This document shows, one piece after another, positions 4,006 to 36,978 of a stretch of DNA of 36,978 bases. The DNA comes from Candidatus Omnitrophota bacterium. GTDB taxonomy: Bacteria > Omnitrophota > Gorgyraeia > JAHJTE01. How positions within the stretch are numbered: position 1 is the first letter of the stretch; every line of letters starts with the position of its first letter. The notes under the pieces were generated by a model. It made no database searches, had not been told where the DNA came from, and saw only the letters and a program-made list of their open reading frames with translations. A program made the position numbers and the translations under genes. The stretch covers positions 265,674-302,651 of the forward strand of contig JAHJTE010000003.1 of the NCBI GenBank assembly GCA_018830005.1, given 5' to 3'.

Positions 4006-4058
4006 GTTCCCTACACCTCCTTTTATATACAGACGATCTCGAAATGCTAAGTTGTGAC

Positions 4059-4439: not shown

Positions 4440-4497
4440 AGTCTACACCCCCTCAGCTATATTTTACACCCAAATAATGTTTTTTTGGGAATTTTTA

Positions 4498-5814
4498 TCA
4501 ACAAATTCCCACGAATACCTCCTTCATAACCACACTTATTGCACCAAGTGCAACTGCTTTTTTCTCGTCAATATCGCTAATTAACACCTTGATTGTCTCT
4601 GTCTCTTTAATATCAGCCAGCTTCAGTTTCTCTTGAAGCATATGTTTTAATTGCGGTAGTTCTTTCTGGACTCTTTTTGCGATATAGATAACATCCGGAC
4701 CTAACAGCTCTATCAATGCCAAGGCCCTATCTTGTAACTCTAATGTAACTAATTCTACCTTGCCTTCAATTTCCTTCTCAGGCTTATAGATATCCCCTGC
4801 TAATATCAGACTTAACAGATGCCTTGAGTGTATATAGAGAATATTCTTATTAGACAATTCGCGCAGCATCCACATCTGGGCATAAGACTCTAAATGGAAA
4901 TTCTCTTCAATAACTACCGGTAAGCTAAATTCTCGAAAGATGTAATCTTCAAAACCTGTATGTTGCTGCATATCAGCTAAGCCAATGCCAATACCTAAAA
5001 CCTGGCTTGCCTTTGAGCCTAACTTACCTATAATACTGCTGATAAGGCTCCTAAGCTCTGTCTCTATATCGTTTTTATCTCTAATCGGCTTTTTATCTTC
5101 TAAAATTATATCAAATGCCATATTTGCTACTAATGCCAGCATGTATCCAGCCTCAGCATTTACTTCTATACCCAAAATCAAACCAAAGTCCTTATTAAGC
5201 TCTAATAACTGGGCACGTCTGCCGCCGCTGGATAAATCCAGGCCACAATCAAAAACCAAACCTGCTCTCAAAAAGTCTTCAATAAACTTACCCACGCTTA
5301 CGACGTTCAGGTCTACTTGTTTAGATATATCTGCCTTGGTTACCGGGCCAAATCTTCTGATATAATCAAGTATCGCAAAACTCCTGCGTTCTTTATCCGC
5401 TAACTCAACAAGAGGCTGCTTTAGGAATTTTATCTTGCGAGTCTCTTTCTTCTCTGGAGTTACCTTTTGATAGATATATGTCAGATAAGTTTGTTTCTGT
5501 TTTTCATCAATCTGTATTATCTCCAAACCCACACCGCTTATTGAGTCCTGCTTTCTCTTAACCCAGGCAACCTGACAGATAAGGCGCATAGGCTTGCCTT
5601 CTCTATGAAGCTGTAAATCAAGATGCACTATATTGCCGATTGACTCTAAAGAAAGATTGTGGGAAACAAACAGACCGCCCTCAGAGATATTTAAGCTCTT
5701 AGCCTCGCTCCAGGCAGACTCGGTCCTATCCGAGAACCTGAATCTTACTGGCAGGGTCTCAGGCAAGCGCTGGAATCTTCTCTTTTCGTTGTGGGCTAAC
5801 GTATTATTAAACAT
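4498..5814 (-). CDS. PilZ-winged HTH-ROK (NagC/XylR-like) fusion regulator
   Basis: N-terminal PilZ (KRRFQR, NISEGG). wHTH GPVTKADISKQVDLNVVSVGKFIEDFLRAGLV followed by SSGGRR. ROK-like ILGIEV, GIGIG and LPVVIEEN, with a shortened C-terminus. Confidence 0.8.
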   Translation of the reverse strand: MFNNTLAHNEKRRFQRLPETLPVRFRFSDRTESAWSEAKSLNISEGGLFVSHNLSLESIGNIVHLDLQLHREGKPMRLICQVAWVKRKQDSISGVGLEIIQIDEKQKQTYLTYIYQKVTPEKKETRKIKFLKQPLVELADKERRSFAILDYIRRFGPVTKADISKQVDLNVVSVGKFIEDFLRAGLVFDCGLDLSSGGRRAQLLELNKDFGLILGIEVNAEAGYMLALVANMAFDIILEDKKPIRDKNDIETELRSLISSIIGKLGSKASQVLGIGIGLADMQQHTGFEDYIFREFSLPVVIEENFHLESYAQMWMLRELSNKNILYIHSRHLLSLILAGDIYKPEKEIEGKVELVTLELQDRALALIELLGPDVIYIAKRVQKELPQLKHMLQEKLKLADIKETETIKVLISDIDEKKAVALGAISVVMKEVFVGIC

Positions 5815-5826
5815 CTCTATTCATTA

Positions 5827-8800: not shown

Positions 8801-11800
8801 CCAAAAAAGTTAATCAATCTAGCACATGTCTCTTTAAACTCTTCTTCAGTCATCTCTGAATAAACCCATCTGAATGTATAAGCACTCATAAAGTAATCCA
8901 AAGAGCCTTGCTGTGGTAAATATATTTCTGTATCATTCCCACTCCTATACAACCCCAACCCTGCATCATGCAGCATCATCCTTATTCTCTTACCCACCGG
9001 TGACTCTCCCACCGGCTCTTGGTAGTAGAATACGTGGCCGTCGGTGGAGCCGGGAATATCGCCGTCACGAGAATCAAGAAGTGAGTCTTCATAAGTCTTA
9101 ATTATCTCTAACTGTCGCGAGAGGAGCCAATGCTCGCAGATATCGTATTTATCAGTATCCATTAGCCTTAGATCTCTGATTTCTGTCTCAATCCTTGCCT
9201 TTAGCTGACTTAAGGCATTTGGCGTCTTTCGTCTTCTTCCTCTTGGGGTGAAAACTTCCTTTTCAAGCAACTCTCCTACAATCTTGCGTTCATCGCTATT
9301 AAGTTTCCTGCACGCTAATGCTCTATGATTAAGCTTCCTGCGAGAAATTTTACCATCGCTATTTGTTAAAAATAAAAAACCGGTTACATTATTGTCTCCT
9401 TGAGTATACACTCCCAATAAACCCCAATTCAATCCAGCAGCCCTTGCTTGAATCTTTATCATTTGACCGTCAAGTTTATATGATATAGACAAATAGGACG
9501 TTATTGTAGATTTGCTGAATAATCTTACAAGGCAAGCCCCAATTCTTTGGTGGGAAGTAGCCTTTCTTTCGATATAACCTTCGGGAAGCTTACTTGTAAA
9601 TCTGGAATTAAACCAATCATTCAATTGTTCCTCGGTACTTAATCGCTTCTTCAGCTCAAGTATTGTCTCACCAGGTTGCATTTTCTCTATACTTTTAACT
9701 TTTCCATTTTCTAATTCCACAAATTCTCTTCCTATTGGTACTTCACTTTCGTTAAAAACAACAATAACGCAATAATTATCTCCTCTCTCATCAATCCCAG
9801 TGTAGCCTTTTCTATTAGCATATTTTTTGTAACCACTTAGAGCGTTCATCGTTGGAATAATATAGATAGCTCCATTCTTATCAATCCAGATAGGCAGCCA
9901 TTGCGGAACCCTGCCTTTGACATTTGAAGCAACAAAAGCCTGCCAGTCTTTTCTTGCCTTTTTAACATTCTTATTATCTTCTTTTTCTATTTCAAGAATT
10001 TTCTTTGCTTCTCCTACGTCGAATTCTCTCTTCAGTAAATACTCTCTTGCCTTCTTAATCCAATTTCCGATAGTTAGATCTGAGTATTTTTCTCCATCCT
10101 GATTTCTTATACCCATATCATAAAGTATGTATGTGATCTCCTCTTTTGTGTGAGGATTTCCATCTTCTAAACCACAAAAGAAACTAAAGGCCAAAGCCTT
10201 ATTCGGCTCTATAAGAGCATAATCACCTAAATATTCTATTAATCTAGCTCCTCTTTCAGTCACATCCTGATCCCCATCTTCCTTAGCTTCCTTTAATTTA
10301 TATGCCTCTAGAGAAATTTCGCTTAAGAACATCTCTCCAGCTAGTAGCTCTCCTCCCTCAACTCGTCTCTCATCATCAAGACTTACTTTATCCCGCTCTA
10401 TACTCTTACCAATAAACGCAGTATATATGCCGTCTTTAATCATAGGGGCTAGAAATGTGCTTAATTTTGTATCCTGGGTGAAGTCATACCTTTTCTTGCC
10501 CTTTAAAATTTCTGTCAGGCAACAAATTCCTGCAACAAGTAATTCCTCTTCATCATAGAGGCCTAAAAGAAACCCAATTCTGGGGGTTGAATGAATTATA
10601 TTCTGAATAAGCCCTTTATTTTCCTCCACAAATTGCACTAAAGCCTCCTGGTTGCCGATTTCGATTTCTCTATACAAACGTCTCCTTCTCTGTTCTCCTG
10701 GCTCTATATATCTCAGAAGTAGCTCTCCTGCATCTCTGACTCTTAAAGGAGATTGGTTAAGTAACCAAACAAAAGCATTCTCTGCTTTCTCTACTTTATA
10801 CTTGCCTGCCAACTCTCTAAAAACATCTTTCAGCGTGCTTACATAATGGCGTCTCTTCTTGCTAGGCAACTTGCTTTGCCTGATAATCTTCTCTAAAGTC
10901 CTAAATAGATAAGAGTATTTTGCTCCTCGGCTCATCTCTGGAGTTTGATCCTGCTCTCCTTCAACATCAATCTCATAGTTCAAAACCCAGTCAATATATC
11001 TATCTATAGCTCTTACCAGCGCCTCCAGATCGCCCCTTCTAAGCCACTCTTGCAGCATCCCTCCTGATACCCCGCCGTTTTTGGAGGCAATCGCTGCCTT
11101 TCCTTCTTTCATATTTTTCCTATACTCTTCAATAATCTCCTCCTGTGAATCAGGAATACCTAAATCGCTCAAGAAACTTTCGTCTAATTCCTCAGATCTT
11201 TTTTCGTAATACAACTGAATAAATCTCTCAGTCAAATATAGTCTGCGCGCTGGACTCTTTAATATTTCATACATAATGTCATCAGGATGAGGGCATTGTT
11301 TGGCGATAGCAATAAAATCTGGCTCTATCTCTAATGTTAGCTGATAGAGTAAATAAGGCTCGAATGCCAGAAAATAAATCAAAGGATCATTTTTTGAAAT
11401 ATCAATGATAGTGGTAATATCTTCATCGTAAACATTTCCAAAACAAGGAATTGCCGTGCAGTAATAATATACATTTCCGTCACAATTTACAGTCACTGTC
11501 TGTGGTAAATAACAATAATCTACGTCTTGTCCATAATAATCTGTTCTTTTTCCATTAATAAAATTTTCTGTTGTGCCATAATCCCCGAGATAACATTCCT
11601 CATTTAAAAGTTCAGCGAATCCTAACCTGCTAACAAAATCTACACCTACAATAAATCTATACTCTCTACGATTTTTAATTAGGGTCCAGTAGATAGTTCT
11701 AACTACTTTCTGTTTTTTTCCATTTCGGCCTCTTATAGATATCTTCTCTTCTACTTTAGTTTTAACAGCAAAACCTCTCCTTTTTAATTCAGACTTCAAA

Positions 11801-17800: not shown

Positions 17801-20800
17801 CATTGACTGCTGCTTCTTACGTCTTTGATCTCTGTAGGGGGATTCCTAAAGGCTTCAGAGAGGATTTGTCTGGTCCATTTGACAGGAGGGCCTTTTCTTT
17901 TATTTTCTGAAGATCTTTCTTCTTTCCGATAATGCGCCTTACGAATTGAACCAAAGAACATATCAGCTGTACTAGGATCTTCTGGAAAGTACTGGCGACT
18001 ATTTCCTTTTACTTTGCCGGATGTTTTCTTCGGGCCGACTGATAAAGAATTATTATTTTTAGAATTCTGTATAAAGTAATTTAATAAGGCACGCCACCGC
18101 TCTATATCTAATCTACCTACCAAAGATCTAGGTAATGGTTTTTTCGCGTAATGACTGATCACGCACTTGCTAACTTGGGAATATTGAATACAAACTGAGG
18201 ACTTCTCTAGGTTAAAATGTACACCGATTTCCCTGTAGCTCACTTCTTTTCCACAGAGTCGTCCCATAATACGAATTTTGAAGATTAATCTGTCTCTACC
18301 AGGATTCCCGCCACGTATTTTTACGGGTCTTAATAATTCATCTAAAATATATTCAAGTTCTTCCTCACACATAGCAAGAGAAGGTTGTTCTAGGCTTTCG
18401 TCTAAAGGACTCTCTCTTCTTCTGGAAGCCTTCCTCCATAAATCAATTCTTATCTGTCCAAATTTTTTATAAGCAAGGCTCTTAAGATTTGAGCCGTTAG
18501 GTCTATCAGGATTGTAATTCGTAATTATTTTTGGAATTGCTTTATCAAAAGCTCCAAGAATATCCTTACAGCTAAATGTCCATTGCCACTTATATGCTAA
18601 TGTTTCTGCGTAGAAGTAAAGCAATTGCCTTAAGGCATCTTGCGCTTGTCCATCGCCCTCATGAGCTGCTCTAGCCAGGGCATTCTGCTCTTCTAGTTTT
18701 AATTTATGAATCGTTATCTTACTGCCTGGTTTAAGGATAGCCTCTGCCAGACGGGCTGCTTGTTTTCTAGAACGTCTTCTTTCCCTTTCCTCTTCTTTCC
18801 AAACTGACAAGACTTGTTCTGCCAGCCTTTCTGACCGATGCTTATTTTCTTTCTTGCCTTTTAAGTTATCTAATTCATGCTTTAGTATTTCCTTTAAAAG
18901 CCCTACTCTCTTAAATTTAACAAGAAGCAATATCAAGGTAAGGGGTATATAAATACCACTTTTGACCTTGCCCTTTGACTTTTTAATTGTTACTGCTGCT
19001 AAAAATATCTTTAATGACTTATACCATACAGATGGCATCTCTCTAGGGTCTTTTTTAGGATCAGGGAGCACGATAAATACTCCTCTTTTCTCCAACGCCT
19101 TTAGAATCTCTTGATAAGGCTCTATTTGAACGAAAAAGTTGCTGTAGAGATTGCGCACGCCAACTACACGCCCATCATCCCAGGCTGTTTCTAGCTCCTC
19201 ATAAGTCCTGTCTTCATACTCCTTATACATCTGGCCGTCTGCTTTAAGCACACCCATGCCGCAGGGTCGGGGGACTGAATGGCCATTGGAAGCTTTATAA
19301 ATTTTGATTATTTCTAATTGTCTCAATAAGAGCCAATGTTGGCAGATATCATATCCATTGCCTATGCTTTGTCTTAAATCGCCAACTTCCCCTTCAATCG
19401 TTGATTGCAATTTTTCTAAGGCCTTTATACCTTTGCTTCTCCTTCCCCTTACAGCTAAAACTTCATCCTCAAATAAAGCAAGTATATTATTCCGTTCTTC
19501 CTTATTAAGCCTACTAAGAATTAACAAGTTATTATTAAGTTTATTATGAATAAGTCCTCCTTTATTATTGTCTTTCCGGATTATGCCCCCCACGACTACC
19601 ACATCTCTTAGAGTAGCCACTCTCCATAAGTGCCAATTAAAACCACTTCCCTTTACCTCTACCTTGAGTTCTTGGCCTATTAATTCAGGGGGTAGCGAAA
19701 TATGTACCGAACTATTATTTGGAACTGGCACTGCTATGCCGGCACCTCTTCGGCGGCCACCACTATAAACAATCCTTACCAGTGCCTCTTCCGGAGGTTT
19801 CCTTTCAAAAGGCAATTGCATCCAATTAGCCCACTTATCCCTCACTCTCAACCTTTCTTTAAAATCAGCTATTCTCTGGCTGATTTGCATATCTAAACAT
19901 TTAATAACCTTACCTTTTTTGACTTCAACATAATGCCTACCTATGGACGTGCCTCTACCATTAAAAACATTAACAGCACAACATCCTTCGCTAATATCAT
20001 TTTTATCAATATCCACAAACACCTCTGCACCAGCATGTTCTTTATAATCAGTTATTTGCAGGTTTTTAGATATCCAAATGTATCCTGCTACGCCAACTAA
20101 GATATATAGCCCCAACGGCGGATCTCCCTTCATGTTAGACTTAAAATAGCTATCCCATTCCCGCGCTATTTCTTTCTTGTTATCTCGCCGCTTTTTATCT
20201 TTTTCGATAGTCTTCTTTGCTTGTGCATTGCCGCATAATTTGATAAGCAGCTTTTCTTTCACAAAGTTAAACCACAACCTGATAGTCTCTCCTGTAAATT
20301 GATCTCCATTTTCTCCTTTTACGCCTAATCCAAAAAGGTAAGCAGCGATTTCCCCGTATGAATAAACTACATCGTCTTCTAAGCCAAGTTTCATGTTAAA
20401 GGCCATAACACGATAAGGAAATTCAATAGATAAATCTGCTAAACATTCTCTTGCCTTGGCTACAATTGAATCATTTCCTCTATCTAGCATACTTTCTAAT
20501 TGGTTATGTCGGGCTAGCGAAGCTCTTTCTACTTCAAACTTAGACAACGAACAAAAAGCTCTTGATTGCCACCGGTCTGTTTTCTTAAAGCTCGCCTCAG
20601 CATTAAAGTCTAGAGAATATTGCTCCTTTAATCCGTTCAAAATCAAACCTCGTAAAGCTGGAACAGCATATGAGCTAAAATTAAAACCGGCATCAAAAGC
20701 ATATCTTTCATCTGTTATTATGTATTGCAAAAAATATCTCCCCATCTGAAGTATATCTTCCATAGTAGTAAACTTTAGAAACGCTTTAATGGCAGGAGAC

Positions 20801-32800: not shown

Positions 32801-35800
32801 TTATTTCTTCTAAAATCCTCGAAATCTTTCCTGGTTAAACCTAATTTATAAAATACTGCTACTAAGGCATCTATGTAGGAACCATTAAAGCAAGAGACAG
32901 TATCTTTATCCATCACGCTAGCTAATTCCCAAATTAGGAAATGGCCTCCTGTTATATACAGGATACTGGTCTTTAAGACCTCTTTTTCTCTATCTGATAA
33001 GTTCTTCAGATTATCATATCTATCTATAATATCCGGCCTATATTTGCCAAGAAAATGTCTCGCATTCTCTATGGATTTCTCAAGAGTTGACCAGTCCAAA
33101 GGAAAATCAAATCTAGTTAAGTTAAGTTCAGGGAATAAATCAATAAGAACACCAATGTGAGAATTGTATTCAAGGTTAGTCCTCTGATCCCTGGCACCAG
33201 AAAGTCTCCAATTATCAAAGCAACGCTTGGTTATTCTGCAGACGTCGTATCTTAAAGCCGCCTGTTCCTGAATCGACAGATTCTTAAAGTTAGTATATCT
33301 TTCTATAATGTCAGGTCTGTATTTGCCAATAATATCCCGTGCGTGCTTTAGTGTGTTTTGCGCAATTCTATAAGGCCATGCATCTGAATCAGGCAATTCT
33401 AGCTCTAGGCCTTGTTCAGTTAGAAGATGCGATACAGAGGCAACATTGCCTTCATTATCAAGGACTAGTTTATTTTCACCAATTTTTTCTCTGATTTTTT
33501 TACCCTCTCTTAAATACACACCAACAATTACTTCATTATTGCTGCTCTTTAATACCCCCCAATATACTTCTTGCAGTGCATAAGGCAGATAGCCGCCCAG
33601 GACCTTGCCAGCAAAAATCATATATATGTTTCCTAAGGCATCCACCCGAGCCGGAACAAGCCGTGGATAAGGTCTTCGACGTATACTCTTAAACCACTTA
33701 CTGCATCTAGACCCAAGCTCTATGCGCATAATATATTCTTGAGGGCTTTCATAAACTCGTGGTCGATCAGTACCATTTTTCACTGAAATTTCAGAGCCGT
33801 TGCGTCTAATTCTATAGTAGCGCTGATATGCTAACTCTGCTCCCCTTGTACTTAATCTATAGAATCTTAATATAAACCAGTCTCTGCCTCTCTGGCCCGC
33901 AGCAATCCTTATCTTTTGGCCTCTTGAGTGCTCTGGTATTTCAAGTCTAAAATTATCATTTATTTTTATGTCAGAATTAAAAATGTCCTCGATTGGTTCT
34001 GGCTGTTCTACTTTAGCACCTCCTAAGATGAAGGCCCATAATTGTTTAGTGAATCTTTTCCTGAGTGCCTTTTTGATTTTTCTGGCTTGTTTTTCTTTCT
34101 CTCTTCTACTTAAAAATTCACTATACCCGTCTTCCCCATAAAGATATCTTGCAACTCTATCTATTGCCTTCTCTATAAGTATCCGGATATCTTCGCGGCT
34201 ACGACCACCCATTTCTCTTCCAATCTCAACAAGGCTATTATCTTTAGACTCTAGCTTCTTAGAAAGGGCACATCTTTGAAGTTCCGTAAGTTTGGCCTTT
34301 GATAAAATCTCTGCTAATTTTCCCTCACGCTGCATAACTTGAAGACTAGCCCATGGATCTTTAGCACTAGGATCTTGAACTTCGTCTATATCGCCTGTTC
34401 TGTAATATCGCTTTATATTGGAAGAGGCTATACAGGAGGAAACATCTGAAAGCCTAAGTAGTCCAGAAGCGGTCTTAGCGTCCACTCTCAGATAATCCAT
34501 GATTTCTAATTGCGTTGGTTCTTCTAAGCCTTCCTCTAAGCCCAGCATTACTTTAAGTTTTATAACAGCTCTTTTTAGATTGAGCTCTCTATAAGGAGTA
34601 AATCCTAGAAAATCATATACTTGCCCTAGAGTCTGATACCTTGCATAATCAATGAAACTTTTGCCTTTGCTGTAATCAAAATATTTAAATGCTACTAATC
34701 TTAAGGCCTCACGTATAAAGTCCTCAAATCTCCCCTGGGTTATTCCTAAGGAGTATATTCTACTTTGAACCAACTTATACCCGAATTTAAAATAAATAAA
34801 TCCTTCTGCGTCTCTAAGATATAAATTACCCAACTCCTCTAATGCCTGCTCATCAGCGTCTCTTTTATAACGCCTAAGTAAGATCTGTGCCTGAATGGTT
34901 TTGTTGTCTATGCGACATACCAAACCATCATAAGTCCAGCTGCTATTCGGATGAAGTGCTGAATGTAAATTTAGCCGTCTAAAGCATGCACCCTTTAAGT
35001 AATGCGCAAGGGGATGTCTCATCTTTTGAGCGTTGCCATTACCATTAATCTCATCTAAAACATTGGGCTTAAAATATAAGCTGTTTATTTTAAACTTCTG
35101 CTCTAAGATAGCTTTCAAATTTAGCAATGTTGCTATTTGCCAAGATGCCTCTACTTCAGCAACAGCCTTAGAATCACTCCTTCTATATCCATTAGTCTTA
35201 ATATCAGAGACTAAAAATGAACTGGCTTCTTTGCCTTCAATATTTACAAACATACCAGTAATGCGCCCATATGAACCATTGCCATTAGAATGTGCCAAGG
35301 CTTTATTATCTTGAAAAGGATAGACGTCAATATATATTTTACCATTAGCATTTCCAGGCTGAGTTGCCTTAAGTCTTGCCTCTGTTCTTATATCTCCATA
35401 ACCCCATTCCAATGCGGGGTTTGCCTTTATTGCTGCTCTTAAGGTCTGTAGGGAATTTCTCATACCTTTCTTAGCATTTAAACTAGCAAGCACCCCAGCA
35501 AGAAACACCTGTTGGCTGGAAAAATAACCAGAAACAAAAGACTGAATATCAGGATTAAGTGAGAAAATGATTGATGCTTGATGGTTGATATTTGAGAAGA
35601 AAGGAAGAACTTGCGAGAGGTAATTTGTTACCGATGAGAAGAATTGACCGATAACTAATGCTGGTGGTGCCTGGGGCTGCAGTGTGTCTGTAAGTATTCC
35701 CTGCGTATGGCTGATTTCAAAACTAAATAAACACGTCAATAAAAGCAAAGATAATATTAATGGCGATTTAACAACCAGACCAAGACGTTGGGTATTTTTG

Positions 35801-36978
35801 GATTTTGTTGCTTTGGAACCAGGTGAAGATTTGACAAGGGCCTTAGTTTTTCTTGAGGGCCCATCTCTGCCATATTTATTTCTATATGTAGTATCTCTCC
35901 TGTTGAAGACTGTAATTTCTCCTTCTCCCCTAAATTCAACTTCATTTTCGCCTATCTTAGTTCCTCTTCTTATACAGGTTCCTGCAAGGGAATAATCTTT
36001 CCTAAGATAAACTCCAAAGATTACTCTAGCCTTATCGCTATACAAAGGCCTATAAACAACATCTGCAAACAAATAGCGCTTATATCCACGCAGGAATTTC
36101 ATAGAGCCCTTCCATTCAAAAAGAGGGATACTACACCAAACACCTATTACTCCAGGCACATCTTCAAGACAGGGTTTTGTTCGTTTTCCTTTAAACCATT
36201 CAAAAACAGCTCTCCTTGCCTTAATTCGGCTACGATATTCTTCTCCAGTCTCCCAGATTCTAGGACTTTTACCTGGCAGAAAACAACGCAATTTTACTTG
36301 TTTCTTAGCTTTCCTTTCAATAATATAGTATTGACGATATAATATCTCTTCTGTCTTCGGATCAAGAAATCTCACCATTAAGTAGTTAGTATCCCTCTCC
36401 TCAGCAATAATGCGAATATGCCTGCCTTGAAGATATTCTGGTACTCCAATAAAGAGACCTTTACCTAAATATAAACTTGTATTAAAATAACCTTCGATTG
36501 GCACTAAATCTTCTTGAGCGTCATTTATGATAATTGATGCCCACCGCAGAGCCTCTTCTCTGATTGACCTCTTGAGCATACGAGCTTTCTCTTCATTTTC
36601 AGAAAAGGCATTAAACCATCTCCTTCCATAGAGTGAAATTAGGACTCTTTTCCTTGCTTTATTTCTAATCTGCCGTACTCCTTCTGAGGTATTGATATCA
36701 ATTTGCTCTATAATTTCCCGATATTTTCTACCTGCCAGATATGCCTCTAGAACAATTATTTCTCTCTCAGTTAAATCAGCTATTGAGAGGGCCTGTTGTA
36801 ATTGACCTCTCTCATATTTATCTCTAAGTATAGTATTTGCGTCCACTGCATTTGGATCAGGAAATGCATCTATTGAACCTGTAGCGTGATATTCTTTGAT
36901 TGCTGCATTAAGTATATTATTGCCAGGCTCTCCAATGCCAAGTAGACGACAGGCAATATCCCATCCTACATCTAAATA
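5827..36978 (-). CDS. Giant multidomain membrane-anchored protein (at least 10,383 aa; likely 5'-truncated by the window)
   Basis: ORF track gives 10,339 aa from a GTG at 36844-36846. My reading of the 44 codons 36847-36978 finds no in-frame stop. Ends in TAA TAA TGA at 5821-5829. Recognisable domains along its length argue that it is real. Confidence 0.95.
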   Translation of the reverse strand, partial: YLDVGWDIACRLLGIGEPGNNILNAAIKEYHATGSIDAFPDPNAVDANTILRDKYERGQLQQALSIADLTEREIIVLEAYLAGRKYREIIEQIDINTSEGVRQIRNKARKRVLISLYGRRWFNAFSENEEKARMLKRSIREEALRWASIIINDAQEDLVPIEGYFNTSLYLGKGLFIGVPEYLQGRHIRIIAEERDTNYLMVRFLDPKTEEILYRQYYIIERKAKKQVKLRCFLPGKSPRIWETGEEYRSRIKARRAVFEWFKGKRTKPCLEDVPGVIGVWCSIPLFEWKGSMKFLRGYKRYLFADVVYRPLYSDKARVIFGVYLRKDYSLAGTCIRRGTKIGENEVEFRGEGEITVFNRRDTTYRNKYGRDGPSRKTKALVKSSPGSKATKSKNTQRLGLVVKSPLILSLLLLTCLFSFEISHTQGILTDTLQPQAPPALVIGQFFSSVTNYLSQVLPFFSNINHQASIIFSLNPDIQSFVSGYFSSQQVFLAGVLASLNAKKGMRNSLQTLRAAIKANPALEWGYGDIRTEARLKATQPGNANGKIYIDVYPFQDNKALAHSNGNGSYGRITGMFVNIEGKEASSFLVSDIKTNGYRRSDSKAVAEVEASWQIATLLNLKAILEQKFKINSLYFKPNVLDEINGNGNAQKMRHPLAHYLKGACFRRLNLHSALHPNSSWTYDGLVCRIDNKTIQAQILLRRYKRDADEQALEELGNLYLRDAEGFIYFKFGYKLVQSRIYSLGITQGRFEDFIREALRLVAFKYFDYSKGKSFIDYARYQTLGQVYDFLGFTPYRELNLKRAVIKLKVMLGLEEGLEEPTQLEIMDYLRVDAKTASGLLRLSDVSSCIASSNIKRYYRTGDIDEVQDPSAKDPWASLQVMQREGKLAEILSKAKLTELQRCALSKKLESKDNSLVEIGREMGGRSREDIRILIEKAIDRVARYLYGEDGYSEFLSRREKEKQARKIKKALRKRFTKQLWAFILGGAKVEQPEPIEDIFNSDIKINDNFRLEIPEHSRGQKIRIAAGQRGRDWFILRFYRLSTRGAELAYQRYYRIRRNGSEISVKNGTDRPRVYESPQEYIMRIELGSRCSKWFKSIRRRPYPRLVPARVDALGNIYMIFAGKVLGGYLPYALQEVYWGVLKSSNNEVIVGVYLREGKKIREKIGENKLVLDNEGNVASVSHLLTEQGLELELPDSDAWPYRIAQNTLKHARDIIGKYRPDIIERYTNFKNLSIQEQAALRYDVCRITKRCFDNWRLSGARDQRTNLEYNSHIGVLIDLFPELNLTRFDFPLDWSTLEKSIENARHFLGKYRPDIIDRYDNLKNLSDREKEVLKTSILYITGGHFLIWELASVMDKDTVSCFNGSYIDALVAVFYKLGLTRKDFEDFRRNNWIKRYGWKDGIAQGIGNVREVLSRETPHIIEAYDNLSRLSEEEKSILMQWIYQISSAHFEVLGLSSARDDRKAPYFCGSHIDCLIKVFSGLPLDRDKFNPRPLPASKETQTTNPKQLISLAKLALILCTVLVAWLFSFETGHTQEILTDILQPQAPPLYLVNTIVHSFVPLSFISYLTPTLSILSSLKDVDLLLSRLLDSLPLALSPAMKGFLQHISPYLGAWAILNLLFAVYDTFSASDKKAGQRFSIRLFLKNFGRLISTHFSICFVTAVIISGVMFNFFPLSIFENILLIAFGLACIAIVVCGIRQPILEKRRHNPEYRAKKIFEDIFGEIPESEKTILVLKKIYKYIDGANQHIQDLRKETFIKKKRIFPKEYDWIGALRQSFKLIRKHKISKKINKVAKQKPSVSEIVTDLKSSLKQLKSFISKNTHVREGEVDLKLNELEGLLKDLLIRLTEYAIYLRTGKWQSFAGVFDEKTDTNSTSMDRLLVSGVEEKRIASVNEVDLHIHSSFDNGDLSPIDIVSQALKKGLKAIAIVDHLKDGFSFTAFREALKAVKGTSLEIIPGLEIRTKDQDSMRDMLVYFPDLQEFKENMQDLIQTQPKRYSSVQEVIDWAHRFGGVVIYAHPGAFGKKKEDASDEKIFELFKRGLDGLEIDHKLYRTRDRIHLLALIEKWNEEHPNDQKTYTIGSDYRSSIYKGYPCEIGVGWTGRKGHPNVRHYSYEEIIPPLKNKSKHKDGNRGFITLGSLFLIIAVGLILVPTIWNLVFDILPNWDTSSTGVVFLAAMNDNRQKISPRQLPRNLLETYDVPPNHIRSILNKGVVKTVLPKFSPKEEVRILDLANLTDMSFDISGFRLIFYYYDRSERQDNLLNKVDAVSGLGQESILVIYMPCLDKIHFKNLRRVSIYPEIVEDLAIYERKSTNNRVMPSLPFTREAKRQNYDQALAMLKDINSLHRLKAILLALAIDGGFQALAYRYCKAFLSEILGKGNNETRKELRDYIQMLLGNKSLVINKVFRIVAITQIKKLDNDLIHGLILSFWLTIGIVDLFSSASGQAQTLNLAGPGSFHTALIIIALELLVFTCIAVCTHRSLDDSQKVILVVDNTEIMLDKEKDREFVGIGGTGLGRTYDAIADVTMPLATDKYLIDDQEPFRFSVGPCVFVIIHNHKNKRTYPIHKRRVELDEAIRLIDIAYEDMGNGEEIEVHAGGLALFDDFQLEHNRQLFAFRGRIINHLASKGYKNIRLLFPSLCTTFTDITFDTKNSSAVYCFGFYSYSEDLQTPSQRITNKKLIEIQSQKATQDLPSLDSLQPLGTDSPLTAGLGGILISNKAYDHIRTAMHPLHLVQVHDISDSAEALGKQFEFTDVNKLLLLKWLDLRWLDKVFKKSHQNNFVLIGGAIEYCLLTTFKHISKAFNRIFSSEKDICEIHIPFYLDISRPWPDSLLYCIRDLAFQNKGIVKRADLELLAQTISKDQREYLDREEFNLKYSFYFDGSTRLRNGSNCDFKDEQIRVYFWSDVKAMSASGQFDAYLRNNTQAERKRSSMLFGTMFLMLAVALCALGLALLAQNSELILRLASLVYGEFCRTTQDFVAHNTLIAGMLAGGVNLKRLTCLADTKHTQKANPSLKRLIRNALAVAETDTVKMKELIKILKLYLGGSNYQIDRFVRAKLRELSKAFPDFIEDIPERLLPTEEELEEYKRRLRNDHIIFIDTLTGAEVGEISLPGGFKRPKKMIEDKIDELMDEKGYNNLLINGVITDEDGKIRLWDYNSSVYFASARTSLMITRGFDSTKLIRSASIIEDQAYIKLCATAINNLPKQIEIKLKSLSGYPIILRNIFYRERLNIDKKGNIRGKARTISAGELEEILTACLESEFVYNEIFDMQGSIIATYLYKFPEDIKLSENSAIISTGNNGQFIFGAKRKYYFTHIINGLILVFSEGLIPKETIEISNLSVSGRRRAAVYLQKNLGEQDNLIWRDEGIEWSEVFKELDDGSIIRAKNLEVKKPARIHFNYEMYNLDSNKFKYGDSAVAWFVKSNGRLLLLYYMKLEDYEACHFDAYVGEYVSACSGGNVFETFYHRFPTPAQIQTMFKQYNTDELRIENRLTTLEGTLKICTSKGSGDYIDYWIGLKKEPLAVWMDKYSGLPQLAMRLKDLRAANYDATAYKLSVKEGRGLVQKVTLKEFLVEEIPLAKHVRLELKRRGELLGRLLVSPIEEVLSKYPHLIKVALDLFTPLGRIDDIGDIGTLSNNLKERLGPLDSLRGVNDLGRIREIFNRLSEDLGCESISILKEVYGAEKDLSIKLIIFILLRNQLDLLKFGNHSDEIVNLRIDMHEAIESEINNIKILLEKVVDYREVVDLIIRYSQLMMAEQIDIEFRKGLFNYRNSKEIEEIGSAICDKTLEYTASSKKEILEIYYQLIPDSDWDRRVANLTKLIFELRDATTLDSIEVLAESFNKVIDRDLLWLPILASLCEEEKDLQTKLVIFSSLENRLLLASSDVKKEGHNQTRFERMFSCLIEKKFVEVNSLLANANSWNKVLALTAKYMYLKRVVDINISLLKGDIYLPNIDHLQEIEAALPERAFKYNTTDGIRKIIKTFSKELFVAVGENSIVRAKRLERRIDACFWLAARIEIYNKNKVRHAFMELPSKWQAIFYVRIKERVPIVVTGSLFNATFTSISKRLGETIRGLTYAENITPQLRRDFKEVLSEVCSDLDDDYLRNIYRDFLYEYKEEQIDRLFKGAKKYFTPRHNCLVNQVVKEVRRQRRLLLVRIRQVAQGRNSNTPFDKTMADHLLRPLAESCSRSLLDFRTEDLRTLYLRFAFNFEYKELARIFGLSQRAIMDRINLVVSKLMKDSGFFKDSVIEGLSIIFKRLAENDGYKADVEKALNISCIEILRKRAMQIGYELPLSNGNGYMGNGNGRGVRLIKYSRRVLRLLEKTNNVSKVSEGFGLSELDLAQEAFDVYQRNFVSQGSNTVGSRIVILQLLDRLYDKLKIIEPVQVRLWKQGLLGDIELHLKQIEAILRKADPTEFERALKIVGEVEFTFNLANVLDYGTIHRLENRLALIKKEIRRKKGTIPAGIESLRSEIKYDLSRAFALVDNGCLNGNSYNLFKIILKVIANKILTLGRLEDDFDSYQSNRTYYIPELRLLAACIQINMAREKGSNFASLRFKDMDTATILEPCAMGVLKANGQMYKEYEDRTYYELGKAWAGGHVVRYKDLPKKVKDRIDPEIARTLEQENFYFILGTTEPNIWYFTQDIFLNAVTIHKAKGKVKAGAYIPVTLLGLSVSEKVINYELSHLQGAKEDKTESEALAKEVQEAWQSDHIASLKRLTCLGDTQHTQKANPPLKHLIQNALIQAQRDDRMKEFIPILKSFLDGSNYEIDRFARKILLGLKPRFYRQLADVQPRSLRAGLTREDLIELAEDDKLVFIDAETGKKLGKLPALRAGNKFKKYPESRDEMINRLMDDEGHSGLYVLGVTVNRHGRLLRVLGKSPSVLFAHAKTAILITKNSAGEKLIRKTLILEDCSEDSEYIDKCLKAVEDLRGKGNIATKYLKGYARILGNLCVNERFSLDREGNVKWKNQTIQFSELKGLFQDYLRQGEIYSEIFDIDGNLISVYRAQFPKNIKLTKNVVITSTDNQGRFNFPCNEQLRKTGTVDDLILVFNVDTAPLEFIAVSNIDKFETSLESHRLTYLQRNITEEDKLICIGDRKTEVYRELDDHSVVRHMNLKAKERKGMVGIWFNFVFYILDRDKFEEGDRMVAWFEKVNGEFWLLYCQKLKDYLVLRPDIDVFEYAVTFDEHGNVLNSTKKGFPSPDEIKEMFNKYGAKYIRSEGAYTNSRGHLRRQHRVDGVDCNFHRNIGIKNEPLALWFDKLSGLPVLAVKLKDLRSANFNTTVYKLSVKDSKGLVEAQRLRTFLKEDILLAITIRLAFERNERILLRLSSYSIKEVFKKYPNLATIIANIDTNELRRRMLIRKVRRGDKAASAQFCEENDPLIRWIVKRSPAIKAFLKFTTMEDILQMGRYFLQYIITDERYAFDAGFNFSSYAVPALRGLILNGLKEQYSLDFNAEASFKKTDRWQSRAFCSLSKFEVERASLARHNQLESMLDRGNDSIVAKARECLADLSIEFPYRVMAFNMKLGLEDDVVYSYGEIAAYLFGLGVKGENGDQFTGETIRLWFNFVKEKLLIKLCGNAQAKKTIEKDKKRRDNKKEIAREWDSYFKSNMKGDPPLGLYILVGVAGYIWISKNLQITDYKEHAGAEVFVDIDKNDISEGCCAVNVFNGRGTSIGRHYVEVKKGKVIKCLDMQISQRIADFKERLRVRDKWANWMQLPFERKPPEEALVRIVYSGGRRRGAGIAVPVPNNSSVHISLPPELIGQELKVEVKGSGFNWHLWRVATLRDVVVVGGIIRKDNNKGGLIHNKLNNNLLILSRLNKEERNNILALFEDEVLAVRGRRSKGIKALEKLQSTIEGEVGDLRQSIGNGYDICQHWLLLRQLEIIKIYKASNGHSVPRPCGMGVLKADGQMYKEYEDRTYEELETAWDDGRVVGVRNLYSNFFVQIEPYQEILKALEKRGVFIVLPDPKKDPREMPSVWYKSLKIFLAAVTIKKSKGKVKSGIYIPLTLILLLVKFKRVGLLKEILKHELDNLKGKKENKHRSERLAEQVLSVWKEEERERRRSRKQAARLAEAILKPGSKITIHKLKLEEQNALARAAHEGDGQAQDALRQLLYFYAETLAYKWQWTFSCKDILGAFDKAIPKIITNYNPDRPNGSNLKSLAYKKFGQIRIDLWRKASRRRESPLDESLEQPSLAMCEEELEYILDELLRPVKIRGGNPGRDRLIFKIRIMGRLCGKEVSYREIGVHFNLEKSSVCIQYSQVSKCVISHYAKKPLPRSLVGRLDIERWRALLNYFIQNSKNNNSLSVGPKKTSGKVKGNSRQYFPEDPSTADMFFGSIRKAHYRKEERSSENKRKGPPVKWTRQILSEAFRNPPTEIKDVRSSSQWEDAGYRGIIKVAIRIYGSWHKFLESQGIKPIERKEWTEQTLSEAFRNPPTEIKDVRSSSQWQEAGYRGMVKVTFRIYGSWLDFVKSQDIQPIEKKGRIPKWTEQTLSEAFRNPPTEIKDVRSSSQWQEAGYGGMVEAVRRIYGSWLDFVKSQGMKPCCESCVYQKFTQHYDNPKVVKDILNGKTKVKSEDMSLEQQVKLAKEVQKGNLAAYQALMYSLEWLAKKISKEYRLKYFNLDSDQRLSACLKAIPGIVARFDPEKWDKTIGAYAYKRFMGSIDDKARSELRREKRENTSSLDRSLNEKDERGRRPQTLLDKLIPEEQLPELTQQEAETRLKELLKPINASERNKQMFILAALHRSGIINMNQEEIARQFNCSPSNISRNYKSITRKLGLISNNSHLARSTHEDVESPQIKRHHHFPEAPTAADMFFGPVRVAHLRRESSRKKTSGALYYFGGGKACGRASMRSALGGKGANLAEMARLDLPVPPGFTIPNKIVRRYDENRNSLPKGVSELIFQGVSEIERRTKKVFGHVKKFGDLKNPLFLSVRSGAEESEPGRYKTYTKIGLHRITLDAYGREIGDMHRAYLDFLLYFMSYIAECVSQDDAGFDEGVNKIVDEIPSLRENYYMDRYDILPKLISLDKLKEMVLKAERLFEQKTGKKFPTPKRQLMLAVKSVIQSSYFVCGAACNIQAYVFGNIGDEKSGSGVIFTRNPLNGEKGIYGSFKFNAEGSEVVGRLKIVDNILCKWDRPEGLDALQKYLPQQYLELEEFALLLEKHFYEIQDIEFTIQNGKLFILQTRGNEKFSTPLARVRILLDFVKEGLISEEDALGRFREEEYEDCSNFDVPSSVRLEHLWWTKTYLESPVLRKDLERKPIASGIIVLPGIVSGPIITDCTNPKGRKGIAVIFNVMEFERLQTITPEAIERRISGAISYGGGFADYIVVRMRGAQKIIPHLTRINLQIHSNTVKFSRTNAEVKIGSWLILDGNTGHVYKGKLSSKDLEDSEITKVNKGMIRKRDSELHPYYDTLLKWIIILEVDEILIREIKKRGQWSWEEDIILEKGLTLSNEELFNILKEGNTLGALADKIRGDNKKVAIFRKELQLAIKKIKKENATRGAIKDKLALELKKRLLSEQVCGNSPQNGGVSGGMLYRLAKQGNANELARIMKAYLEYHLQQIRECKFGIIELDFPCLVSSLVSIIDSKPVLLPILKKAFEILLEDYNVQDRHLIFELFFEYESHEILRLGEVLMSDIYKQRLSWAVTWDYFEIAAHPELLLSAWLANMMSPLAWKIIKRKTKGRSTAQSLRSLEGHLKHYYVNTFSTSDRPEGCRWGWTTIDFKKAALGDEVVGQIIDRLDQFFSVDEGGYGGFSTTTAYRQGYRARMKNEIIELMHAYRRIRHDNKAEGKCASFATLDAAFLSLISIFTQVPFEKIFIFGTQIHFAVFIDIDEGYVFSNLYWYSKKKFKELSENIDWYREFAAPCTDSFVSFSGIFNSVLGISTMSKDTVVKFYKRLSEFFGAEFNIPDLSGIRFIDRRGAPINIQDFDSAETLQKYAFNLAEEYFEYEAALYAFRSLKVKYPEVYAAKALEETHTKDNARFMYSLDDAIRFVRNIQGFKSVFGSLDRIMLPDEVLAFVTGSHRDKALLLWTLLYYMNERNMEDRELMCVVFAEDDSFVYVNGTFISTRTFEKSIEIPESIKYIFDEKGHYDCNIFNGHILMATDAKLVYSEKDNDEEDAEDPQNKRHHHSQETPTTTDIFFGPIRKAHWPGYSADNENTEDGSNDYPRRLKALMRREKYFYCLTGKGVDLERREVVKRFSAKVDLVGPLAFLKHMFTFQVTRECNTWCPHCLFVYCKPQRKLNWKQKEKMYRDLLEFAENDPRFKEICIGGGEPLSFAKEDVLFLLENSRKPNILQTNAKFASTPGSARDSLSEVYKIIKAKTDATSDYYFILNTSLDSFHQRTIPISNIANLVQVIAEDFPEISLVIRSLHEPDVHKRLGVLKSELKRRGFAVKTKVEEKISIRGRNGKKQKVVRTIYWTLIKNRREYRFIVGVDFVSRLGFAELLNEECYLGDYGTTENFINGKRTDYYGQDVDYCYLPQTVTVNCDGNVYYYCTAIPCFGNVYDEDITTIIDISKNDPLIYFLAFEPYLLYQLTLEIEPDFIAIAKQCPHPDDIMYEILKSPARRLYLTERFIQLYYEKRSEELDESFLSDLGIPDSQEEIIEEYRKNMKEGKAAIASKNGGVSGGMLQEWLRRGDLEALVRAIDRYIDWVLNYEIDVEGEQDQTPEMSRGAKYSYLFRTLEKIIRQSKLPSKKRRHYVSTLKDVFRELAGKYKVEKAENAFVWLLNQSPLRVRDAGELLLRYIEPGEQRRRRLYREIEIGNQEALVQFVEENKGLIQNIIHSTPRIGFLLGLYDEEELLVAGICCLTEILKGKKRYDFTQDTKLSTFLAPMIKDGIYTAFIGKSIERDKVSLDDERRVEGGELLAGEMFLSEISLEAYKLKEAKEDGDQDVTERGARLIEYLGDYALIEPNKALAFSFFCGLEDGNPHTKEEITYILYDMGIRNQDGEKYSDLTIGNWIKKAREYLLKREFDVGEAKKILEIEKEDNKNVKKARKDWQAFVASNVKGRVPQWLPIWIDKNGAIYIIPTMNALSGYKKYANRKGYTGIDERGDNYCVIVVFNESEVPIGREFVELENGKVKSIEKMQPGETILELKKRLSTEEQLNDWFNSRFTSKLPEGYIERKATSHQRIGACLVRLFSKSTITSYLSISYKLDGQMIKIQARAAGLNWGLLGVYTQGDNNVTGFLFLTNSDGKISRRKLNHRALACRKLNSDERKIVGELLEKEVFTPRGRRRKTPNALSQLKARIETEIRDLRLMDTDKYDICEHWLLSRQLEIIKTYEDSLLDSRDGDIPGSTDGHVFYYQEPVGESPVGKRIRMMLHDAGLGLYRSGNDTEIYLPQQGSLDYFMSAYTFRWVYSEMTEEEFKETCARLINFFGRDRMRYAFSRNNAAFSHNLVRIYKFGIDEFERLARHIDLEIVGKGFENNEEWFINSLNILIANERDLVWLKDLEEECSYLINMEGTNIDGYLERARQTLVGLGKMDAILASKDRDKILTKVLLSILLFRQNLLISLISKEEYRLLVYKILIQACFSEKYDNASSYFIFGIPYIKGTSFATSYFVSTCAHELDHNIFSGDCFISEIISDLGGFSILEQIGWSEDIEESQVILEYGRFKKDFALVLRTREHHYCARTQLQWIIEQLESVDYTRLFRLALMIVKKGPWMRFSIFVLELLRQYGQEIAGPSEELDPVVSEMSEKLRKGRDRLITPEEIRRIIRVFQPSDPRNGGVSEKPADIETYTLNSITDVADPLTWEILSKDLIKAMAYAATIIELGPETRFRLYEALRKEDYAGEYIAIDLAGNIADYSDEGFNYFPPDGPGDIYDIDFMHKVIEGSKSPTIIVSDAAIRYLYPEDMGFKLGNSESERQRAELLAEVFDSYPGIDVHFHLFPAVLDDKRYEEISRVYKLMAQRGWRVIRLTVKDKYDTLWIFIRPSVDMPGSLVQFLGQLNDAKLSRLIQDIVRELRQYENQIRRIHPALSIFGSASVGEADSIYNDTQDLVRKLDGNGYSIVTGGGPGVMRAANSVATSRPSVGLQIQCPKEEGNEFVDIGLMFKYLFARKRAFIDLSVGALCMPGGFGTLDEFFEIASLKDQGHINDFPLVLFDNVSRKFYQGLEERMRDLSERGLLRKRPKDLFVVLDSSQRILRYLEDEACLEKLNANNNVDIEQVIRDLYRTLKRIEKVVPAFGIVGSELVSETSPEYEQARQVTKGLANSDISVIYKGHRGISAAAAQGYKDVKGTNSQCISLLLKGNRDHSNHASMNLGFSYTFEQKMALIRHSSLGFVFLQGGTGTLDILFEVLCLMQLEKIEQVPVVLLGRDFWQPWHTWFKKTLLPAGVIVEEDLNRYRIVDTYQEAVAIIEDFYLGRLL
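5830..7030 (-). other. Tandem LOG-family (TIGR00730-like Rossmann) domains at the giant protein C-terminus
   Basis: Copy 1: SIFGSA, TGGGPGVM, FARKR, PGGFGTLDE (6688-6714). Copy 2: QGGTGTLDI (6049-6075), degenerate. Confidence 0.85.
7140..7740 (-). other. Class I SAM-methyltransferase-like domain
   Basis: IIELGPET, YIAIDL and GDIYD spaced like motifs I-III. The glycine-rich motif is imperfect. Confidence 0.4.
7790..8700 (-). other. HExxH zincin-like metallopeptidase domain
   Basis: AHELDH at 8221-8235 with a downstream Glu (ISEIISD, 8188-8190) as candidate third zinc ligand. Confidence 0.5.
9088..10692 (-). other. Sigma-70-like domain plus beta-rich domain, copy 2 (535 aa)
   Basis: GNQEALVQFVEENKGLI...YDFTQDTKLSTF (region 2), GLEDGNPHTKEEI (region 4), then a domain ending YDICEHWLLSRQLEIIK. 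Paralogous to 19294-20904. Confidence 0.75.
11400..12312 (-). other. Radical SAM domain with Twitch/SPASM-like tail
   Basis: CNTWCPHC (CxxxCxxC, 12253-12276), GGGEPL, LQTNA, SLDSFH, and C-terminal YC...VNCDGNVYYYC...FGNV. Confidence 0.88.
12650..13700 (-). other. Transglutaminase/papain-like Cys-His domain followed by a degenerate second copy
   Basis: GKCASFATL (Cys 13576-13578) and IHFAVFI (His 13477-13479). Second motif PDEVL...GSHRDKALLL resembles GDCxDxAxLL with the Cys lost. Confidence 0.5.
14700..16455 (-). other. Truncated pyruvate phosphate dikinase-like module (ATP-grasp plus phospho-His swivel domain, no PEP-binding barrel)
   Basis: LGGKGANLAEM, LPVPPGFTI, LSVRSGA, VFGN...SGSGVIFTRNP, QDIEFTIQNGKLFILQTR, LDGNTGHVY. 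Confidence 0.9.
16624..17232 (-). other. Sigma-70-like domain (regions 1.2-4)
   Basis: LEQQVKLAKEVQKGNLAAYQAL, ARFDPEK...IGAYAYKRFMGSI, SSLDRSL, NQEEIARQFNCSPSNISR. Confidence 0.82.
17332..17877 (-). repeat. Three tandem in-frame repeats (183-195 nt; 61-65 aa) resembling homing-endonuclease-associated repeats
   Basis: Units start at Trp codons 17875, 17692 and 17497. Consensus WTxQxLSEAFRNPPTEIKDVRSSSQWxxAGYxGxxxxxxRIYGSWxxFxxSQ. Near-identical DNA. Confidence 0.92.
18160..18702 (-). other. Sigma-70-like domain (regions 1.2-4)
   Basis: LEEQNALARAAHEGDGQAQDAL, NYNPDR...NLKSLAY, SPLDESL, VSYREIGVHFNLEKSSV. Confidence 0.78.
18799..19263 (-). repeat. Unknown module C, copy 2 (paralog at 22846-23265)
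   Basis: PCGMGVLKADGQMYKEYEDRTY...IFLAAVTIKKSKGKVKSGIYIPLTL...LKHELDNLKG. DNA 19201-19238 is identical to 23203-23240. Confidence 0.9.
19294..20904 (-). other. Sigma-70-like domain plus beta-rich domain, copy 1 (537 aa)
   Basis: GDKAASAQFCEENDPLI...FDAGFNFSSYA, GLEDDVVYSYGEIA, ending YDICQHWLLLRQLEIIK. Confidence 0.75.
20938..22824 (-). repeat. Unknown module B, copy 2 (629 aa)
   Basis: Begins LKRLTCLGDTQHTQKANP and ends LAVKLKDLRSANF...YKLSVKDSKGLV...KYPNL. Collinear with 26137-27984. Confidence 0.9.
22846..23265 (-). repeat. Unknown module C, copy 1
   Basis: PCAMGVLKANGQMYKEYEDRTY...IFLNAVTIHKAKGKVKAGAYIPVTL...INYELSHLQG. Confidence 0.9.
24259..24390 (-). other. Isolated sigma-70 region-4-like HTH
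   Basis: EDLRTLYLRFAFNFEYKELARIFGLSQRAIMDRINLVVSKL. Confidence 0.7.
26137..27984 (-). repeat. Unknown module B, copy 1 (616 aa)
   Basis: Begins LKRLTCLADTKHTQKANP and ends LAMRLKDLRAANY...YKLSVKEGRGLV...KYPHL. Confidence 0.9.
28950..29420 (-). other. CheD/deamidase-like Cys-His domain
   Basis: SVGPCVFVIIHN...YPIH (Cys 29323-29325, His 29272-29274) and EIEVHAGG resemble the CheD pattern GLGSCVxxxxxD...H...xxFGG. Confidence 0.45.
30600..31295 (-). other. PHP-family phosphoesterase domain (TrpH/YciV-like)
   Basis: DLHIHS, AIVDH, IPGLE, YAHP, LDGLEI, GSDYR. Confidence 0.88.
32329..32450 (-). repeat. Linker motif A, copy 2: hydrophobic helix + LFSFExxHTQxILTDxLQPQAPP
   Basis: 56/64 nt identical (hand count) to 35667-35730. 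Confidence 0.9.
32506..33369 (-). repeat. Three diverged tandem repeats of 93-105 aa
   Basis: KYRPDIIERY (33324), KYRPDIIDRY (33045), RETPHIIEAY (32730). Each is followed by NLS..E...L...I....F...L and ends Y/FxxSxIxxLxxxFxxLxLxRxxF. Confidence 0.85.
34150..34882 (-). other. Sigma-70-like domain with regions 2, 3 and 4
   Basis: DEQALEELGNLY, FDYSKGKSFIDYA, EEPTQLEIMDYL, LTELQRCAL...SLVEIGREMG.RSREDIRILIEKAIDRV. Confidence 0.85.
35662..35766 (-). repeat. Linker motif A, copy 1
   Basis: SPLILSLLLLTCLFSFEISHTQGILTDTLQPQAPP. Confidence 0.9.
36643..36774 (-). other. Sigma-70 region-4-like HTH
   Basis: LTEREIIVLEAYLAGRKYREIIEQIDINTSEGVRQIRNKARKRV. Regions 2-3 may lie upstream of the window. Confidence 0.75.

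Follow-up and report, generated by a model that had tools for sequence, protein, structure and literature searches.

At the end of a 302,651-base contig from a Candidatus Omnitrophota bacterium (assembly GCA_018830005.1, contig JAHJTE010000003.1, positions 265,674 to 302,651) lies a stretch of 36,978 bases, referred to here as the window, that contains a single stop-free frame on the minus strand, at window positions 5827-36978. The genome amounts to 1.65 Mb in four contigs and is 95% complete. This giant frame has at least 10,383 codons and is open at its 5' end, where the contig ends, and no continuation of it was found at the other contig ends of the genome. Within this one frame lie four copies of a two-part arrangement, a stretch resembling a bacterial sigma factor followed by a beta-rich segment (copies A to D, Table 1), and a profile search of the same genome found no copies beyond these four. 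Residues are numbered so that amino acid i of the giant protein starts at window nucleotide 36978-3(i-1). A sequence-only reading of the window had described the four segments as copies of one novel domain fused behind sigma region 4. The peptides quoted in that reading were found in their places on the minus strand, and the helix-turn-helix ends that it gave (36643, 34150, 20245, and 10033) correspond to the last helix of each region-4-like stretch.

Repeats within the giant protein were identified by comparing it with itself, in chunks, using BLASTP. Residues 1-356 matched residues 829-1180 (copies A and B) with 29-31% identity and E values of 1e-19 to 1e-22, and residues 5354-5897 matched residues 8758-9299 (copies C and D) with 27-36% identity and E values of 1e-26 to 1e-33. 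The division into two closer pairs, which had already been read from the letters, was therefore recovered, with E values down to 1e-22 for A/B and 1e-33 for C/D. Each repeat spans the sigma-like part and the trailing beta-rich segment together. At the end of copies C and D there is also a helical tail (…YDICQHWLL.RQLEIIK.Y), which copies A and B do not have. The last 46 residues of this tail (5852-5897 and 9254-9299) are 56.5% identical, which makes them the best-conserved stretch of the whole C/D repeat.

Each trailing segment was cut at an internal helix into two units of approximately 105 amino acids (A1/A2, B1/B2, C1/C2, and D1/D2), and all pairs of units were compared by Smith-Waterman alignment against 300 composition-preserving shuffles. 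Units within a pair were clearly similar (A1 and B1, z 22.6; A2 and B2, z 16; C2 and D2, z 17.8). Between the pairs, the second unit of copy B aligned with the first unit of copy D over about 80 residues (score 79, z 10, P 1.5e-6), and the same match was found independently by BLASTP (residues 1105-1155 and 9025-9075, E 1.5e-4). The first unit of copy B matched C2 with z 3.6 and D2 with z 3.8. Comparison of pair profiles with hhalign gave E values of 7.8e-5 (probability 61%) for AB2 against CD1 and 0.0023 for AB1 against CD2, while in-register comparisons were weak (first units, E 0.1; second units, E 0.033), and A1 against D1 was no better than shuffled sequence (z 0.6). These out-of-register matches, found both in the shuffle test and with hhalign, indicate that the two pairs hold the units in opposite order: region 4, X, and Y in copies A and B, and region 4, Y, X, and the helical tail in copies C and D. 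What the pairs share is thus one unit in a swapped position rather than one collinear domain present four times, and the earlier expectation that the copies would align significantly with each other holds within the pairs and for B2 with D1 out of register, but fails in register across the pairs.

Several simpler descriptions of these segments were not supported. A four-way in-register alignment made with MAFFT looked plausible and was rejected by the shuffle tests and by hhalign. The peptide correspondence that had been proposed between the pairs, ERDTNYLMVRF with ERGDNYCVIVVF, places A1 against D1, for which the score is like that of shuffles. The 'W..F....P' strings that had been considered shared among the copies follow a loose pattern that is barely enriched, with 24 occurrences in the giant frame compared with 17 +/- 4 in shuffled versions of it; yet within the Y units the tryptophan is invariant and the proline nearly so. 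Duplication of one unit type to give all eight units was not supported either, because hhalign comparisons of X with Y gave E values of 0.14-0.2 when made within a copy and of 0.012 when the halves were pooled. By these comparisons, no relationship between X and Y can be detected.

It might also be argued that the A/B and C/D segments are altogether unrelated, and that the match between B2 and D1 reflects convergence or a compositional effect. Only one of the 16 cross-pair unit comparisons was strong, the hhalign probability for the best profile match is no higher than the value given above, and A2 and B2 were missed by a profile built solely from the relatives in other genomes that are described below. 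This explanation is nevertheless considered very unlikely, because the B2 and D1 match stands at z 10 over about 80 residues against shuffles that preserve composition, because BLASTP returned it independently, and because the four-way alignment of the Y units has common W, P, Y, V, I-G, and G columns.

The stretches that precede these units were compared with known sigma factors. A profile of copies C and D (A6) searched against PDB matched sigma region 2, with SigF (1l0o_C) at E 3.9e-7 followed by SigA, SigK, and SigB. For region 4, the top 15 PDB matches of a profile built from the nine sequences of the family (A17) were all sigma region 4, the best being RpoD region 4 at E 2.5e-4. The alignment with RpoD follows the classic pattern 'L..RE..vl.LRfGLD....tleEia...g / vsrerIrQi', broken by an insertion of 8-14 residues in the turn. 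The profile of copies A and B (A8) matched sigma region 4 (3n97, 1ku3, and 1rio) over its whole length with E values of 0.004-0.006, and further sigma matches had E values up to 0.03; the single best match of A8 in PDB was a KH-domain protein, not a sigma factor. Regions 2 and 3 of copy B were read by eye, and phmmer against PDB gave no sigma match for them. In NCBIfam, sub-threshold matches to SigF/SigG, FliA, RpoD, and the sigma-70 superfamily were obtained, with E values for SigF/SigG of 2e-5 for copy C and 0.0011 for copy D. None of the window copies reached a curated threshold: the best Pfam Sigma70_r4 match had an E value of 0.17 (copy B), and NCBIfam scores were 13-24 bits compared with cut-offs of 43-570. 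A relative in another genome, G183, scored 25.2 bits with Pfam Sigma70_r2, for which the cut-off is 24. The claim that the preceding stretches are homologous to sigma region 4 can therefore be retained in the form of a remote relationship, with E values of 2.5e-4 for the C/D type and 0.004-0.03 for A/B. On this evidence the modules are remote sigma-70 homologues, none of which belongs to a curated sigma family.

The nearest characterized proteins are the group 3 sigma factors (SigF/SigG and FliA/WhiG) and, for region 4, RpoD. The profile matches to these in regions 2 and 4 are remote but specific. The modules described here differ from them in falling far short of the curated cut-offs (24 bits compared with 311 in one case), in the turn insertion, and in the lack of stand-alone genes. 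The insertion, which lies in the turn of the helix-turn-helix (..RG....G..S), is a feature of the C/D-type region 4 and is kept in seven other genomes. The insertion suggests that recognition of the -35 element is altered in these modules, and this alteration could go together with Y, since turn insertion and unit Y occur together in all nine C/D-type modules.

The distribution of the Y unit was investigated with six-frame profile searches of about 400 sampled genomes of the phylum and, separately, of 400 genomes of the window's own class. A weak match in the first of these searches proved to be a true relative. It lies in G183, on an 8,491-base contig (C56, locus L014) that is occupied by a 2,830-aa frame open at both ends. 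This frame encodes a region 4 that likewise has the insertion in its turn, followed by a unit that reads 'KEWESFF...P...NGIYLT..LLTGYKKWAG', and it matched residues 5540-5661 of the giant protein (copy C) in BLASTP with an E value of 8.4e-7 across the junction between region 4 and Y. Iteration of the profile added six further genomes (G177, G106, G067, G055, G112, and G197), and the E values of the relatives' region 4 and Y matches before inclusion ranged from 1e-4 to 6e-16. All seven relatives have the match inside open frames, which range from 1,040 to 12,257 aa, and Y follows region 4 after 15-45 residues. The search for co-occurrence with region 4 that had been suggested for the four-copy profile thus led, after iteration, to the combination of region 4 and Y in seven other genomes. 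Conversely, a profile made only from the seven relatives found C1 (score 12.5) and D1 (score 1.5), when the best of 100 shuffles scored 0.8. The idea that a new unit is consistently fused to region 4 can be kept for Y, which has this position in copies C and D and in the seven other genomes, but not for a collinear domain shared by all four window copies.

The Y family was found in 8 of the 401 sampled genomes of the phylum and is therefore rare. Among the 400 genomes of the window's class, none other than the source genome contained Y; the two other matches were ordinary-sized sigma genes (276 and 583 aa) that were picked up by the region 4 part of the profile. When the four-copy profile was searched against 1.84 billion representative proteins, it returned only a 45-aa fragment from the same organism that was identical to copy C at 41 of its 45 residues. 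Neither the family alignment nor the G055 module gave a match in word-indexed protein searches, but these searches did not return the giant proteins from which the queries were taken, so this absence is weak evidence; such collections may lack products of this length. Genome contigs scanned for the pattern of the family alignment gave no match, and a scan of metagenome contigs found one locus, which is the source contig of G055. Taken together, these sequence comparisons indicate that Y is a real but rare lineage-specific domain family.

Unit Y begins with an amphipathic helix that carries the invariant tryptophan. The near-invariant proline comes about a dozen residues later, followed by about seven strands. 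The 11-row alignment of Y is coherent, and its only strongly conserved columns are these two; therefore no catalytic site is suggested. AlphaFold2 modelling of the copy D segment with four sequences gave a beta-rich prediction, in agreement with what had been read from the sequence, with a predicted local distance difference test (pLDDT) score of about 90 for the first unit and below 50 for the second. Modelled alone, unit Y of copy D had a mean pLDDT of 83 and a predicted template modelling score (pTM) of 0.75. In this model, an N-terminal helix leads into three short strands and a four-strand antiparallel meander, and a second helix closes the C-terminal end. Foldseek comparisons with PDB, which covered the two-unit model as well as Y alone, and with viral models found nothing below an E value of 0.02, and all TM-scores were below 0.4; the top PDB matches, which are not significant, were SnoaL-like and NTF2-like proteins (E 0.3, TM 0.24). 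The segments had no match in Pfam or NCBIfam, and the four-copy profile had none among PDB sequences. The description of the domain as novel is borne out for Y by these searches and by the prediction and fold search that had been called for.

Two known folds were considered without finding clear support. Strings of the type 'IPxxLxGxxIxI' in unit X brought to mind the swapped hairpin of AbrB/SpoVT, but no match supported it in Pfam, in PDB sequences, or in the fold search of the two-unit model; the fold test is weak for X, which was modelled with pLDDT below 50. The four-copy profile (A4) also weakly matched the N-terminal oligonucleotide-binding (OB) fold of aspartyl-tRNA synthetase in two of the 400 genomes (loci L011 in G069 and L013 in G095; E 3.6e-4 and 0.0027 per genome). 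These matches probably reflect a fortuitous alternation of strands, and no OB structure was among the Foldseek matches of the confident Y model.

One possibility is that Y alone, or X and Y together, serve as an extra DNA-binding head with which promoter recognition reaches beyond the -35 element into the upstream DNA. This is the first of two roles offered by the sequence-only reading, the other being a built-in anti-sigma or regulatory module. The geometry of sigma region 4 in the RNA polymerase holoenzyme is established, and a site C-terminal to region 4 would be expected to lie near the upstream DNA. All eight Y and X units of the window are basic, with isoelectric points (pI) of 8.5-10.7, and the altered reading of the -35 element that the turn insertion suggests could be compensated by a second head. 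However, the charge is not conserved, since Y has a pI of 4.8-6.5 in five of the seven relatives, and it is not specific to Y and X, since the giant protein as a whole is also basic (pI 8.9; the genome is AT-rich). Nor is there any likeness to a DNA-binding fold. The AbrB and OB ideas found no clear support. Because Y is acidic to neutral in five of the seven relatives and the giant protein is basic overall, charge lends no support to a conserved DNA-binding role; the lack of a conserved basic charge weighs mildly against such a role, which is the less likely possibility, and the explanation as a whole is judged improbable.

A different possibility is that the sigma-like modules are no longer sigma factors, and that the sigma-like part and Y form a structural or protein-docking cassette that organizes the enzyme modules of a giant scaffold. 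This would be in keeping with scores below all curated sigma thresholds in the window copies, with the interruption of the helix-turn-helix turn, and with the presence of enzymes and hydrophobic segments on the same chain. In the relatives the cassette is likewise fused to other parts: an SNF2 helicase with a methyltransferase, a HAD-like part, or a phosphate butyryltransferase-like part. Giant proteins of Omnitrophota have, moreover, been published as multi-enzyme and regulatory mosaics (10.64898/2026.06.07.730766). What speaks for a retained function is that regions 2 and 4 are both present, in the right order and with the right spacing, across distant genomes, which argues for selection on a sigma-like function. 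The scaffold explanation is therefore considered unlikely, if less so than a DNA-binding head.

The explanation that we favor, tentatively and at somewhat less than an even chance, is that Y works in cis with sigma region 4, as an accessory or as a regulator. On this view Y would lack enzymatic activity and serve in binding, most likely by docking on the sigma module, by masking it, or by linking it to a partner. The modules could act either within the giant chain or after proteolytic release. The best available functional analogy is with the ECF41, ECF42, and ECF56 sigma factors, in which C-terminal extensions (SnoaL_2 or TPR) regulate the sigma factor in cis (PMC8999054, PMC7671368, PMC7730460), and by this analogy Y may provide cis regulation in place of a separate anti-sigma factor. 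As in those extracytoplasmic function (ECF) proteins, a non-enzymatic domain stands directly behind region 4 and the fusion is conserved across genomes. The two systems differ in that there is no sequence or fold match between the extensions and Pfam recognizes nothing in the four segments, in that the sigma part here is nearest to group 3 and group 1 (SigF/G, FliA, and RpoD) and matches these better than ECF, and in that the module here forms part of frames that measure 1,000 to more than 12,000 aa, while the ECF factors are free proteins of 200-400 aa.

Several observations weigh against a cis-regulatory role for Y. The sigma modules of the window fall below every curated family threshold, and they may have lost the ability to bind RNA polymerase. 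Y does not always adjoin region 4 directly, as unit X separates the two in copies A and B. Membership of A2 and B2 in the Y family depends on their likeness to C1 and D1 in the same genome, the profile of relatives having missed both. Unit X was not found outside the giant gene when the relatives' loci were searched, and it is poorly modelled. The basic Y and X units of the window are also compatible with nucleic-acid binding in this organism.

The giant frame itself resembles the giant proteins previously described from Omnitrophota (10.1101/2023.11.21.568195; 10.64898/2026.06.07.730766). Like them, it comes from a small groundwater genome, exceeds 10,000 aa, is tiled with many unrelated Pfam domains, has hydrophobic segments, and is cut short where a contig ends. 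The Pfam domains along the frame are PHP, PPDK_N, Radical_SAM, and two of Lysine_decarbox/LOG, and the strongly hydrophobic segments are confined to residues 399-2960 (Kyte-Doolittle profile). It fits the regulatory and multi-enzyme mosaic class of 10.64898/2026.06.07.730766. It differs from the described giants in that the sigma-like modules, X, and Y are not among their domains, and in that the SecA, C39, dockerin, and S8 domains were not found in the giant frame by Pfam search. The word 'sigma' is absent from both papers on Omnitrophota giant proteins, probably because sigma-like modules of this kind are missed by Pfam.

Contigs 100% identical to pieces of the giant frame are present in independent groundwater metagenomes from other studies. 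One groundwater metatranscriptome run (X7) contained seven small perfect contigs along the frame, from 10650 to 36088, two of which fall inside copies C and A (Table 1). This suggests that the giant frame is transcribed over its whole length, with carry-over of DNA in run X7 as a possible alternative. A single low-depth contig in another run (X2) differed from the window by an A to G change at 35092 and a one-base deletion at 35102. Unless it is a sequencing error, the deletion would cause a frameshift in the giant gene of that population.

Table 1. Features of the giant frame in the window and transcript contigs along it
Feature	Window positions	Giant protein residues	Strand	Basis or remark
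Copy A, sigma region 4-like helix-turn-helix	36625..36789	64-118	-	A/B profile A8 against PDB; rest of module beyond contig end
Copy A, unit X	36211..36555	142-256	-	A1 and B1, z 22.6; AB1 and CD2, hhalign E 0.0023
Copy A, unit Y	35893..36210	257-362	-	A2 and B2, z 16; aligns with other Y units
Copy B, sigma-like module	34135..34881	700-948	-	Region 2-, 3-, and 4-like stretches
Copy B, unit X	33709..34053	976-1090	-	B1 and C2, z 3.6; B1 and D2, z 3.8
Copy B, unit Y	33424..33708	1091-1185	-	B2 and D1, score 79, z 10
Copy C, sigma-70-like module, region 2 to 4, with turn insertion in the helix-turn-helix	20230..20919	5354-5583	-	C/D profile A6, NCBIfam, profile A17
Copy C, unit Y, immediately after region 4	19837..20169	5604-5714	-	Relatives-only profile; BLASTP of G183
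Copy C, unit X	19504..19836	5715-5825	-	C2 and D2, z 17.8
Copy C, helical tail	19288..19503	5826-5897	-	Self-BLASTP; common to copy D only
Copy D, sigma-70-like module of copy C type	10021..10707	8758-8986	-	NCBIfam SigF/SigG, E 0.0011; profiles
Copy D, unit Y (the modelled unit)	9628..9957	9008-9117	-	AlphaFold2
Copy D, unit X	9298..9627	9118-9227	-	Predicted strands, pLDDT < 50
Copy D, helical tail	9082..9297	9228-9299	-	Self-BLASTP
Region 4 with turn insertion	10021-10230 and 20230-20442		-	Also at loci L014 and L019-L024
Run X7 contigs	10650-10800, 17934-18155, 19653-19819, 26163-26318, 28259-28483, 31654-31835, 35872-36088			Groundwater metatranscriptome

Further features were noted in and around these frames. 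In the module downstream of copy D there is an HExxH motif (CAHELDHN; window 8221-8238, minus strand, residues 9581-9586), which may mark a putative zinc protease with a possible role in processing of the giant chain. Three PilZ-domain genes (receptors for c-di-GMP; 3676-5814) follow immediately after the giant frame on its strand, and beyond these is a HEPN/nucleotidyltransferase pair on the plus strand (2570-3583). An exact look-up of the adjacent PilZ protein gave no recorded entry. In G183 the frame that contains the sigma and Y module has a JAMM/MPN+-like motif (EIHSHPAWSAYPNRPSEGD) upstream of the module and an SNF2-type helicase and a methyltransferase downstream of it. Another mosaic giant gene of the phylum was encountered at locus L017 (G080, contig C41), a 3,510-aa frame in which metallophosphoesterase-, histidine-kinase ATPase-, and carbamate-kinase-like parts were read by eye; its weak match to the profile looks spurious.

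A more far-reaching possibility, and one to which only a small probability is given, is that the giant gene is a store of alternative sigma factors held in one membrane-associated precursor. Each module would have an on-board Y or X-Y domain acting as a sensor or anti-sigma domain, and would either be freed by proteolysis at conserved linkers or bring RNA polymerase to the giant protein. If true, this would be a previously unknown way of organizing and regulating sigma factors in the ultra-small Omnitrophota.

Sigma factors with fused accessory domains are in themselves an already known kind of protein. To our knowledge, though, fused regulatory domains have been known only on sigma factors that are free proteins of normal size, and almost only on ECF sigma factors. 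Judged by the searches and by the two papers on giant genes, what is new is the accessory domain Y, the divergent non-ECF sigma subtype that carries it, and the confinement of both to giant genes of one phylum. The Omnitrophota are poorly known, and within the reach of these searches the new domain is welded to a divergent non-ECF sigma module only inside giant genes. At about 100 aa and well modelled, Y is a small handle on the role of cytoplasmic-type modules in the giant proteins of this phylum, and it also helps to ask whether those proteins are processed.

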